The notes: generated by a model not told the origin, from the sequence alone. A DNA stretch of 64,000 nt from Dictyostelium discoideum (GCA_000004695.1 CM000155.2:1568001-1632000); one strand, 5' to 3'. Counted from the stretch's first letter, positions 4,158-52,161 are shown. Translations and numbers: made by a program.

Positions 4158-4531
4158 CTTATTTTTGTTTTGTTTTTTTTTTTAATTTAAAGAAAGTAAA
4201 AAAAATGAAAAATAAAAAAAAAATTTTAATAGAGAAAAAAAAAAAAAAAATAAATAAATAATAAATAAAAAAAAATTTTAAAAAAAAATTAAAAAAAATT
4301 AAAAAAAAGGTTGAAAAGTTTTAATATTAATAAAACTTTTTAAATATTTTTTTTTTTTATTTATTTATAGGTAGGAAATTTTTATATGAAGTAATTTATT
4401 TATTACTGGTTTGATTTTGATTGATGAGGAAAAAATTTTGTTTTTTTACTTTTATTATTTATTTCGTTAGGGAGGCTCATTATTTTTTGAAAAAAATATT
4501 TTTTTTTTTGAAATTTTGTATCCTGGGTATG

Positions 4532-4576
<45 letters not shown>

Positions 4577-5142
4577 AAATAAAATATTTTTTTAAAAAAA
4601 AAAAAGTGATACCTCTGTATTGTGTTTTAAAAAAGCAATTGTTTTTTTTTTTATCTCGATTATTAAAGAGTTGAATAATGATTAAAAAAAAAAATAATAT
4701 TTTTAATAAATAATAGAAAATGAAAAAAATGTGGAAAAAAAAATTATATATATATATATAAATTATTAATTATTTAATTATTATTATTATTATAATTATT
4801 TATATGAGAGATAACATCCAAAAAAAAAAAAAAAAAAAAATTGGAAGTTTTATAAATATTAATGTATATATATTGATAAATTAAATTTAATAATGCTCTG
4901 ATTTATTTTTTTTTTATTATTTTTTTTTAAGGTCCAGAAGTCTGAAATTAATTTATTAAAACGTGGCTCTCGGGGTCAATAATTAAAAATTGTGATTGAA
5001 ATTTATGTGGTGAAGTTTTTGATTTTATTTTGTAACCTCTTTTTATCATTATTATTATTATTATTTTTTATTTTTTATTTCTTATTTTTAATTTTTTATT
5101 TTTTTATTTTTATTATTGTGCTATCTTACAATTATTTATTTT

Positions 5143-5355: not shown

Positions 5356-5388
<33 letters not shown>

Positions 5389-6060
5389 CAAACAATTAAA
5401 AAATTAAAAAAAAAAACAAAAACAAAAAATAAAAAAGAAAAATAAAAAAAAAATAAAAAATAATTAAAATGTGGTAAATTTATTCCCACAATATCTCTTT
5501 TTTTTTATTTTTTTTATTTTATTTTATTTTATTTAATTTTATTTTTGTTTAATTTAAACTGTTTAATATTTTTTCATTGAATAAAAACTAACACTCGGCA
5601 CTCCGACTATAATTAATATTATTTCATTTTAATGGCGATTTCCAAAGAATATTAATTCTTTTTTTTTTTATTGTAATATATTACTTAAAAATTATTACTT
5701 GGATAGTAAATAAAATATCAAAAGAGGAGGCAAAACTCGATTATTGCCATATATATATTTTTTTCTAAAAAAAATGATACTAAAAAAAAGAAATAAATAG
5801 GTTTTTTTTTTTTTTTTGGTAAAAAAAACATTTGAAATTAGTAGAAAATATTTTACTTTATCTTTAATTCTATTTTAAGATTCAGCAGATATATGGTTCA
5901 TCAAAAACATAAATACAACAAAATATAACACCCTGTTTTTTTTTTTTTTTATTTTTTTTATTTTTTTTATTTTTTTTTTTTACTGATTAAGTTTTCAGAT
6001 ATTATTGTTTTATTTTTTTTTTTTTTTTTATTTTTTTTTTTTTTTAAAAAATTTTCCTTT

Positions 6061-49382: not shown

Positions 49383-49934
49383 ACACATACCCTTTACCTG
49401 CATTCATAATTTGAACCATGCCTGGTAATAATAAACCTCTATTTTTTCTATTATCCTCATGTAACATTGCACCTTCAATCATGTAGGTGAGAGTTTGTTG
49501 ACCACGATGTGGGTGATCTGGGAAACCTAAATAATAAATAATAAATTATTAAATTAGTTTGGGAAAACTCTGGATACTATATGCTATACTATGCTATATA
49601 TTATATTTACCTGCGATATAATCATCTGGGTTATCAGATTTGAAGGCATCCAACATTAAAAATGGATCAACTTCACTACTTTTTATAGAACCTATTGGAA
49701 AGAAAATAATTATTAATAAAATTTAAATTTCCTAAAGGAAATAATAAAAAAAAAAATAACCTAGGTGGGTTGCAATTTTTTTTTTTTTTTTTATTATTAT
49801 TAATATTAGGTGATAAAGTTAATATACTAAAATGAATTCATACCTCCAATAACACGAGTTAATGAAACTCCATCACCATCTTTTGTAGCAATACCTTTAG
49901 CTACCTTTAGTACTTTTCTTGATACACTTGACAT
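48689..49934 (-). CDS. pirin (bicupin) homologue; exons 49934..49844, 49681..49601, 49526..49391, 49277..48689 (298 aa)
   Basis: Spliced product …KGIATKDGDGVSLTRVIG|GSIKSSEVDPFLMLDAFKSDNPDDYIAG|FPDHPHRGQQTLTYMIEGAMLHEDNRKNRGLLLPGMVQIMNAGKG|IIHSEIPQQRDGMMFGFQFWLNL…EPVVQHGPFVMNTQREIQQAFYDFQSGKF matches human pirin (…DPFLLFDEFK…GFPDHPHRGFETVSYLLEGG…QWMTAGRGILHAE…GLQLWVNL…EPVIQHGPFVMNTNEEISQAILDF). Donors GTATGA (49843), GTAAAT (49600), GTATGT (49390). Acceptors 49683-49682, 49528-49527, 49279-49278. Phases 1,1,2 consistent. Confidence 0.85.
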
Positions 49935-50395
49935 TTTTACTATTTTATTATTTACTTTTTAAAAAATAAATTTTTTATGTTTGGGAATTTTTTTATTTTT
50001 TGAAAAAAAATTGTTTTTTATTTTTAATTAATTTTCGGCGATGTTCGGGGTGATATTTTTAGAGTGGATTGCTTTAAAAAAAAAAATAATAATAACCTTC
50101 AATTTTTTTTGCGTTTTATTTTTTTTTTCACAACTGGCGCTTTTTTTTTAATTAAATTAAAAAAATAATATGAAAAATTTAAAAATAAATAAAATTTTTT
50201 TTTTTACTTTATGATTCGATTAGAATAAAAACAATTTGAAATGGAGACAAAAAATATTAATCATTTAATATAGTGAAAATTTTATTTAGTTACCTAATAT
50301 TATTAGAAAAAGAAACCCAAATTACACACATCCATGTGTTTCTGATACTTTATATTACCAATATTTTAATCACGATAATAACATTAGACTTTTAA

Positions 50396-51731
50396 AAGGA
50401 TCAATACGTACGGATGCCCGCGAACGTCAATAGTGAACAGGTGGTACAATGGCCAAAGGATCAACAGGATTTTCTAATTAAAAATAAGGTACCGTTGGAA
50501 AGGATATGGAATTTGGACGAAACAGCAATAAAACTTGATGAAACTGCAGTTAAGGTAAAAGTATTAAACTTACAACCATTTTTTTAAGTAATATATTACA
50601 ATATATCATTCATATTAATTAATAAAATTCTTTGAATATTTTGATTATAGTATGTTGTAAACAAAAGTTTAGGTAAACCATTGACAAAACCACTCAACTA
50701 TTCCCAACATGTCACCATGATTGGGTGTATATCGGCGAGTGGTCGCCGTTTACCTCATTACTCAATTATAAAGGCACCAAAGACATCAATTGGCAATATA
50801 ACAATTCATACCCAAGGGAATATAATATTTAATGAGTCAGGATGGGTTGACACCAAACAAAAAGTAGATTTCATTAAGTATTTTGGTGATTCAATAAACA
50901 GAGGTCTAACCAAACCTTATCCATTAACTGTTTTATACTTGGACAATCATTCATCAAACTTACAAGAAGAAGTTGCAGATGCCTTGAATGAATATAATAT
51001 TCATTGTTATACGTTTCCAGCTAACTCAACTCACTTATTGCAACCATTGGATTTATTGGTTTTCGGTATTTTCAAAAGAAAGTTGAACCAGACCATTAAT
51101 AATTTAAAAAGGGTTAAATCCAAAAAGGATATACCCAAAACAAGCTAATTATCATTTGAGGAATTATTGGACGTAATAGAAACATCATGGGATGCTACTG
51201 CTTCACCAATTACTATTAAGAATGCTTTTGAAATGATTAAAATAGATTGGAAATCGATAAAAGCATCTTATTTGGATGAATTGGAAAATAATGACGATAA
51301 ATCTTTAGCATGTGTTTCCAATACTTTAGTTATAAATGAAAAACCCTCTTCAACCCAAATAGCAGATGCAAGAAAGATTGGGTTCCAAATTAACAGTTTG
51401 GGTGTAGGGTAGGTAAGAAAAAATAAAATCTATAAATTACTATTATTATATACTAATTTTTTAATTTTAAAATCACAGAAATACAATAAAAATAGATGAA
51501 GCACCAAAAAAAAGAGGTAGACCATCAAAGGTTACTATTAATTCAACTGTAAATGTTTTAAATGTCAATATCCAAAACAATTTTAATATACCAATTACCG
51601 ACTTTTCATCACCTGTGTTAAAACTTAACAAAAATGGCCAACCAAGAAAAAAATATACTAAAAAATTAAAGGCCATTCATGATAGTACAATAAATCAACA
51701 GAATTCAAACAAAATCTCTGAAATTGATTAA
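50396..51731 (+). mobile_element. 5'-truncated remnant of a pogo/Tigger-like DNA transposon. DDE_1 transposase ORF in 3 exons (about 50396..50554, 50651..51408, 51478..51731) with an in-frame TAA at 51146-51148.
   Basis: Translation …VPLERIWNLDETAIKLDETAVK|YVVNKSLGKPLTKPLNYSQHVTMIGCISASGRRLPH…LTVLYLDNHSSN…YTFPANSTHLLQPLDLLVFGIFK… has the DDE_1 signature (N-DE-T … LLLDN…SH … PPNST..LQPLD). It is followed by the typical …AWD…I.NAF… region and a C-terminal KKRGRPSK basic tail. The N-terminal CENP-B/HTH region is missing (reading frame opens only at 50396). Introns at GTAAAAG (50555) / AG (50649-50650) and GTAGGT (51409) / AG (51476-51477). This block is far less AT-rich than its flanks. Confidence 0.6.
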
Positions 51732-52090
51732 TCTCCAATATTAATAAATAATAATAAATAAATAAATTATTTTTTTTCTCATATAAAATTTTAATTAAAA
51801 AAAATGTCGGTTGCAAAAAAAAAAAAAACTCGAAAAAAAATTGAAGGTAATAACCAATTTAATATTTAATCAATAACAATAAAATTAGAATAATTTAAAA
51901 AAATAAAATAAATTAAATTAAAATATCAATAACAATAAGATTAAATTATAAAAAAAAAAAGTGATATTTGAAAATATCTATAAAGGTGTCAATTTTGAAA
52001 AGTGATTAGAGATTTCAATTTAATCATCATTTGTTTTTTTTGGTTATTACTTAGATTAAAAAATAATTTGAATGATTATAAATATAATAA

Positions 52091-52103
52091 TTATTATTAT
52101 TAC

Positions 52104-52161
<58 letters not shown>

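Follow-up and report, generated by a model that had tools for sequence, protein, structure and literature searches.

The window, a 64,000-bp stretch of Dictyostelium discoideum DNA (GCA_000004695.1 CM000155.2:1568001-1632000), carries on its minus strand the first exon of the pirin gene (49827-49934, with the ATG at 49934 and an ORF beginning MSSVSRKVLKV), and a pirin gene model occupies the same place in an independent lab-strain assembly (locus L011). Upstream of pirin lies a 1752-bp element at 50096-51847, bounded at both ends by inverted repeats, and its near end is 161 bp from the pirin ATG rather than the approximately 450 bp given in a first-pass annotation of this DNA. That annotation had placed the element at 50396-51731, which proved to miss the true ends by 300 bp (5') and 116 bp (3'), and had called it a non-genic block, a description that does not hold since AX4 annotates a gene, DDB_G0292434, there. 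Similarity to homologous loci in recent Dictyostelium assemblies extends from about position 50078 to 51851 and then ends, the flanks being unrelated. At six of these loci (L001, L003, L008, L009, L010, and L012) homologous copies sit in unrelated contexts, with homology ending exactly at the element termini. With regard to tRNA-targeted insertion, no tRNA gene is present within 10 kb of the element.

Searched for terminal inverted repeats and target-site duplications, the locus yielded both. The 5' terminal inverted repeat (plus strand, 50096-50140, CCTTCAATTTTTTTT...CACAACTGGCGC) aligns with the 5' ends of the copies at L001, L008, L009, L010, and L012, and its 3' counterpart (minus strand, 51803-51847, ...ATGTCGGTTGC(A)14CTCGAAAAAAAATTGAAGG) lies at the limit (51848-51852) of the homology with L001, L003, and L009. 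The outermost 15 nt, CCTTCAATTTTTTTT at 50096-50110, recur as the reverse complement at 51833-51847 and are perfectly inverted; this 15-mer occurs only twice within the 64-kb window, inverted and at the homology breakpoints, against a chance expectation of 0.37 for any match. From there the repeats run on imperfectly to about 45 nt (an inverted-repeat search pairs both arms). Within them lies an inner motif (CGCAACTGGCG / TGTCAGTTGC) kept among the copies, in which the window copy differs by a single private substitution per repeat (50130 and 51809). The triplet TAA stands immediately outside both ends, at 50093-50095 and 51848-51850, a like arrangement being found in other copies. A BLAST match to L008 that continues into the flanks (to 51913, and back to 50076) was dismissed as chance similarity of AT-rich DNA, as the true ends of that copy, with TTA on either side, are clear.

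Triplets flanking the CCTTC...GRAGG termini could be compared on both sides in six copies: TAA and TAA in the window copy and L002, TTA and TTA in L001 and L008, TAA and CAA in L009, and TCA and TCT in L012 (5' and 3' respectively). Triplets readable on one side agree with these (TTA in both L003 and L010). The two triplets thus match perfectly (TAA or TTA) in four of six copies and with one mismatch in the other two; the middle base is duplicated in 6/6, T occupies position -3 in 7/7, and A occupies position +3 in 6/7. The most economical reading is a putative 3-bp T-N-A duplication, resting on six copies, two of them with one mismatch. Models with a 2-bp TA duplication fit five of the six copies and were set aside, as they need an extra base at one end and hence an asymmetric element. 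The flanks are therefore 3-bp triplets and not the classical 2-bp TA duplication of the pogo superfamily, which does not exclude membership in that superfamily, because TAA duplications have been reported within pogo (Gao et al., 2020; PMC7386202).

The plus strand of 50396-51731 encodes NLDET, LYLDNHSSN, and FPANSTHLLQPLD as well as KKRGRPSK, and so the DDE_1 core and C-terminal tail originally described there are indeed present. The first-pass annotation had named the lack of any DDE_1 hit as a refutation; instead, the spliced conceptual protein matches Pfam DDE_1 (PF03184) strongly (E = 8.4e-19, 68.2 bits against a cut-off of 22, profile positions 5-177 of 177). DDE_1 is the sole significant Pfam family, with DDE_3 below its own cut-off, and the catalytic triad is complete (NLDET, LYLDNH, and LQPLD), with 35 residues between the second and third aspartates (DD35D).

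Aligned with its relatives, the window copy could be resolved into a series of plus-strand features. A start codon and the first four codons (50241-50253, ATGGAGACAAAAA) run into the junction of a 420-bp deletion, at which L008, L009, L010, and L012 go on with exon 1. The sequence resumes in a 3' remnant of intron 2 (50254-50289, ending ...TTTTATTTAG), which aligns with intron 2 of L009, L003, and L010. Exon 3 (50290-50554), which contains the first catalytic aspartate (NLDET), is 265 nt long instead of 267 owing to a private 2-bp deletion near 50421, and is followed by intron 3 (50555-50650, 96 nt, GT...AG), whose position is common to L009, L001, and the gene models P0001 and P0053. Exon 4 (50651-51408) encodes the remaining part of the Pfam DDE_1 core (LYLDNHSSN, LQPLD) and contains the triplet TAA at 51146-51148. 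Intron 4 (51409-51478, 70 nt, GT...AG) is kept in L009, L001, L003, and L008, and exon 5 (51479-51731) encodes the C-terminal tail, which is basic (KKRGRPSKV, KNGQPRKKYTKK, NSNKISEID), and includes the stop codon, the tail motifs being invariant even in paralogues at 35-52% identity. The two canonical introns described earlier are thus real, both being GT...AG introns at shared positions, except that the donor of intron 4 is at 51409 and not at 51413.

Three lesions interrupt this gene. The largest, the 420-bp internal deletion, takes away what follows in exon 1, together with intron 1, exon 2, and the greater part of intron 2, as compared with L010 (element positions 1-159 correspond to L010 4770-4929, and positions 157-470 to L010 5350-5671). 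The copy had been taken to be 5'-truncated, but the 5' inverted repeat, the 5' UTR, and the ATG at 50241 are all retained; the N-terminal part reported missing is indeed gone, through this internal deletion. The codons lost with it (approximately 5-130) are presumed, from their position, to have encoded the DNA-binding region. The second lesion is the frameshift near 50421, where the window reads GCCCGCGAACG and L010 reads GCCCGAACGAACG, with L009, L001, and L003 also in frame. Frame 0 of exon 3 reads LPNIIRKRNPNYTHPCVSDT...RTDAR, and past the shift the frame reads ...NVNSEQVVQW; the methionine of MPANVNSEQ, previously taken as the start of the coding remnant, reflects an overlooked 2-bp frameshift, coding sequence actually starting at 50241 (ATG) or, for exon 3, at 50290. 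The third is the in-frame TAA at 51146-51148, noted from the outset and borne out by comparison with other copies: it is a private AAA to TAA change (Lys to stop), the codon being AAA in four others (L008, L009, L001, and L003). The independent lab-strain assembly at L011, which is 99.945% identical to the window over 7.3 kb, is identical across all 1752 bp of the element, TAA included, and a 143-aa ORF ending at the TAA is found in assemblies of public read sets (P0056); the TAA and the other lesions are therefore real and not sequencing errors.

Besides the window copy, at least two further copies are present in the lab strain (L008 and L010), and each of these at least three is defective in a different way. 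L008 has an internal deletion of about 960 bp, while L010, to which the partial AX4 gene DDB_G0294368 corresponds, is truncated at the 3' end and has been rearranged. At L010 5754-6000, the truncated copy gives way to short 'TTAAAGTAACCTTAAAAATTACC' units in tandem-like order, along with part of exon 3 duplicated in inverted orientation (5873-5986); the locus is near a chromosome end and adjoins an integrase-type gene. No full-length protein of the window-copy subfamily was found among the annotated AX4 or AX2 proteins.

At least six annotated copies, on at least four contigs, are present in the assembly of a probable cryptic sister species. In its full-length form, the element measures 2181-2184 bp (L009 4859-7039; L012 5838-8021), with five exons, four introns, and a 538-aa protein. 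L009 and L012, both near-intact, are 99.5% identical to each other, and L001 differs from L009 at only 4 of 1787 aligned positions; this near-identity points to recent activity in the probable cryptic species. The L012 copy has an uninterrupted 538-aa frame, yet its intron-1 acceptor is changed from AG to AA and DET to DKT by the first catalytic aspartate, and L009 has an A13 run in exon 1 where A15 is otherwise found. Five of the seven substitutions between L012 and L009 are G to A on the same strand, clustered at element positions 366-871, and two of these are the changes that destroy the intron-1 acceptor and turn DET into DKT. The gene model P0001, considered as a possible orthologue of the window gene, was rejected as such, its locus (L001) sharing with the window only the element and no flanks, as in a paralogous insertion.

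More distant paralogous families, at 52 and 35% protein identity and with their own inverted repeats, are represented by L002 and L004. The 52%-identical pogo-type element at L002 holds, between its 5' inverted repeat and its ATG, a nested element of about 600 bp (5384-5985) that has inverted repeats of roughly 115 nt (GGACCTTTCTGTGAATAACTGAATTAATTCTG...) and looks like a MITE of another family. The cryptic-species genome may also contain a further DNA transposon family, represented by a gene at L001 2720-4166 whose transposase domain is DDE_3 (Tc1/mariner-type), beside a TgrO1-like gene and 6 kb from the pogo-type copy.

A profile search of 1.84 billion representative proteins returned 11 matches at E <= 1e-30 and 2336 at E <= 1e-10. 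Apart from the four Dictyostelium queries, the strong matches comprise five proteins from the D. discoideum complex, one metagenome cluster, and one from Branchiostoma, and the nearest named proteins outside this group are from Synstelium and the oomycete Aphanomyces. With few matches at the stricter threshold and many at the looser one, the family is a distinct branch of a very large superfamily.

Pogo transposases carry N-terminal HTH DNA-binding domains of the CENP-B_N, the HTH_psq, or the HTH_Tnp_Tc5 type. In the N-terminus of the full-length relatives (reconstructed 538-aa protein, P0004), no HTH domain was found in Pfam at E <= 1, DDE_1 being present, and a PDB sequence search on the N-terminal domain returned nothing informative. 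Tigger termini begin with CAGG or CAGT, and Tigger transposases have CENP-B-type HTH domains. The window element shares with Tigger and pogo sensu stricto the superfamily, a DDE_1 domain that includes the third-aspartate motif ...LLQPLD, and inverted repeats of a cut-and-paste type, but differs from Tigger in its CCTTC...GAAGG termini and 3-bp duplication, and identity to animal pogo-like proteins is only 26-30%. PIF/Harbinger elements, which encode a DDE_Tnp_4-type transposase and need a second Myb-like protein, likewise produce 3-bp TWA (TAA/TTA) duplications; unlike them, the window element has a single gene and DDE_1 only, with no DDE_Tnp_4 domain.

The closest resemblance is to the Fot and Fot-like elements (Fot1 of Fusarium and stramenopile and protist elements). 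Gao et al. (2020; PMC7386202) report TAA duplications, together with 40-60-nt inverted repeats and DD35D, for the majority of Fot and for some of the Fot-like pogo elements, the other pogo families making TA duplications; Entamoeba invadens is the only Amoebozoa entry in their table. The Dictyostelium family agrees with these elements in DDE_1, DD35D, the TAA-type 3-bp duplication, a length of about 2 kb, and inverted repeats in or around that size class (roughly 45 nt in the window element; 84 nt at 85% in L002), and Aphanomyces, as the source of the closest named relatives outside dictyostelids, fits the reported Fot-like host range. In contrast to Fot and Fot-like elements, the full-length Dictyostelium gene has four spliceosomal introns, the middle base of the duplication may be A, T, or C, and the basic C-terminal tail has a conserved RGRP (AT-hook-like) motif. 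The initial label of pogo/Tigger-like is therefore retained as to the pogo superfamily of the IS630-Tc1-mariner group (on DDE_1, the triad, and the inverted repeats) and dropped as to Tigger, the features fitting Fot/Fot-like better. We file the element as a pogo-superfamily member with Fot-like features, on the basis of duplication, inverted repeats, and DD35D and not of phylogeny.

The DNA transposons described from D. discoideum, namely Tdd, DDT, and thug, have no transposase resembling known ones according to a review (PMC5633606). Tdd-4/5, DDT-A/B/S, and thug-S/T share with the window element the host, low copy number, and inverted-repeat structure, whereas the window element has a clear DDE_1 transposase, which argues against its being one of them as described there. 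The present family appears to be missing from the published D. discoideum transposon lists (PMC5633606), and a literature search found no paper on Dictyostelium pogo elements; a clear pogo-type transposase would thus add to a catalogue that consists of Tdd, DDT, and thug only. It is an ordinary kind of element, and the general view of transposon function is unchanged.

Orthologous pirin loci were found in three related assemblies, L005 and L006 (both labelled D. discoideum) and L007 (D. cf. discoideum). These assemblies come from a study that sequenced the lab strain AX2-214, a pair of tropical isolates of D. discoideum, and two possible cryptic species (PMC12745789; PNAS 2025), the strain assignment of each assembly being our inference. 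All three loci are syntenic with the window on both sides, at 88-93% identity, and are without the element, homology to them stopping at 50087-50092. An intact syntenic orthologue, which would have spoken for a domesticated host gene, was thus not found at the pirin loci of these three relatives. Because three related lineages lack the element at the orthologous locus, it is an insertion specific to its lineage rather than a domesticated gene. The comparison shows that the window copy was inserted in the lineage leading to the NC4-derived lab strains (AX4/AX2), after its split from the other sampled lineages of the D. discoideum complex. Found in NC4-derived strains and missing from three other lineages, the insertion can serve as a presence/absence marker and amounts to a natural experiment on the region upstream of pirin. 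A base-exact empty site was also sought in L005, L006, and L007 and given up, because their AT-rich intergenic DNA has diverged too far for the duplication to be fixed to the base. A GC-rich motif (TTCGGCGATGTTCGGGGTGAT) at approximately 50033-50054, some 100 bp upstream of the pirin ATG, is kept in four lineages amid poorly conserved AT-rich DNA, and represents a candidate promoter element of pirin.

Between the window copy and the subfamily of the sister species, dN/dS is 0.08 at a dS of about 1.1, a divergence far above that of the host flanks. The subfamilies are therefore old and evolved as working transposases, which were under selection in the past. The closest relative of the window copy, L008, differs from it at 15 of 1037 positions (1.4%), and about 10 of these 15 differences are private to the window copy; each inverted repeat has one of these private changes in its inner motif. 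On the truly shared part of the alignment, used for dN/dS against L008, there are three non-synonymous changes and one nonsense change against one synonymous change, too few for a test; these changes are consistent with neutral decay of the window copy.

Taken as a whole, we consider 50096-51847 to be a single pogo-superfamily DNA transposon copy of the cut-and-paste type, defective and non-autonomous, inserted beside pirin in the lab lineage, with a probability of about 0.9. The lesions and the DDE_1 core support the earlier view of a dead pogo-superfamily copy with spliceosomal introns. More tentatively, and at somewhat less than even odds, it may be the fossil of an uncatalogued Fot-like pogo family characterized by four introns and T-N-A duplications, whose activity was recent enough to leave insertion polymorphism between lab strains and wild isolates, and perhaps still active in the cryptic sister species, with copies at 99.5-99.8% identity. 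By analogy with the mechanism of the superfamily, a transposase of about 538 aa would be translated from the five-exon gene of an intact element, would bind the terminal inverted repeats, probably at the inner motif GCAACTGRC, and would excise the element and reinsert it at T-N-A sites (mostly TAA/TTA), where a 3-nt staggered cut would give rise to the 3-bp duplication. We infer the mobility of the family from the distribution of its copies. After insertion, the window copy would have been disabled by its three lesions (the 420-bp deletion, the 2-bp frameshift, and the Lys to stop change); without the DNA-binding part, and with a frameshift and a stop, it would be inert, making no transposase and being movable at best in trans. 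If the transposase of the near-intact copies in the sister lineage can be repaired, a native DNA-transposon tool for Dictyostelium is conceivable.

The annotated AX4 protein DDB_G0292434 (P0002, 256 aa) matches the window exactly, and a second annotation of 50414-51731 differs from it (P0202, 345 aa), each inventing another intron to avoid the TAA. A literature search found no paper that mentions DDB_G0292434. Domesticated pogo-derived genes are known from vertebrates (CENP-B and the TIGD genes), and DDB_G0292434 might likewise be a genuine host gene giving a shortened DDE-domain protein, seeing that it is annotated as protein-coding in both AX4 and the second assembly, that its catalytic residues are unchanged, and that the family has been under strong purifying selection (the dN/dS of 0.08). 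We regard this as very improbable. Both models start past the frameshift and cross the TAA by ad hoc introns; inverted repeats and duplications are present around an ORF with three breaks; L005, L006, and L007 have no copy at the locus; and the other copies in the lab genome are different deletion derivatives at other loci. The low dN/dS, moreover, accrued between subfamilies and not in the window copy, whose few changes from L008 are mainly non-synonymous or nonsense. We read the DDB_G0292434 model as an annotation artefact, spliced around a stop. This model and ACTFIT_009340 of the new lab-strain assembly hide a nonsense codon and a frameshift, and both merit a transposon-pseudogene flag.

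Starting from a defective transposon copy, the window element might nevertheless be still mobile in present-day D. discoideum, through transposase supplied in trans by a full-length member. Its two ends survive with their 15-nt termini unbroken, the divergence of two other lab-strain copies is only about 1.4%, separate deletion derivatives at different loci are a usual by-product of an active DNA transposon, and near-intact copies are present in the sister lineage. Present-day mobility is nonetheless unlikely, given that all three lab-strain copies found (the window copy, L008, and L010) are defective, that the annotated AX4 and AX2 proteins include no full-length protein of the subfamily, that the inner motifs of both inverted repeats have private substitutions, and that the independently assembled lab strain shows no difference from the window across the element. 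An effect on pirin had also been suggested for the insertion, and its main consequence could be regulatory, with the distal upstream region of pirin replaced and pirin expression altered in the lab lineage. The short distance to the pirin ATG would favor this, as would the different distal region in the relatives, in two of which a BB_PF-domain gene ends there. A mainly regulatory role seems doubtful, however, because the conserved TTCGGCGATGTTCGGGGTGAT lies between the insertion and the ATG, so that the proximal pirin promoter is probably intact. Such a role would in any case be compatible with, and not opposed to, a dead transposon.

The BB_PF-domain gene (263-286 aa) lies between pirin and a BTB gene in the two D. 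discoideum-labelled isolates (L005 6589-7449; L006 3688-4555), looks decayed in the cryptic-species assembly (L007, about 4420-4700), and is missing from the window. A connection between the insertion and the missing gene was considered and rejected, as the deletion junction (approximately 51962-52000) is more than 110 bp outside the element; for this reason, loss of the BB_PF gene and insertion of the element are best seen as separate events. Further downstream of the element, the intergenic DNA contains a long (ATT)n microsatellite at 52085-52160.
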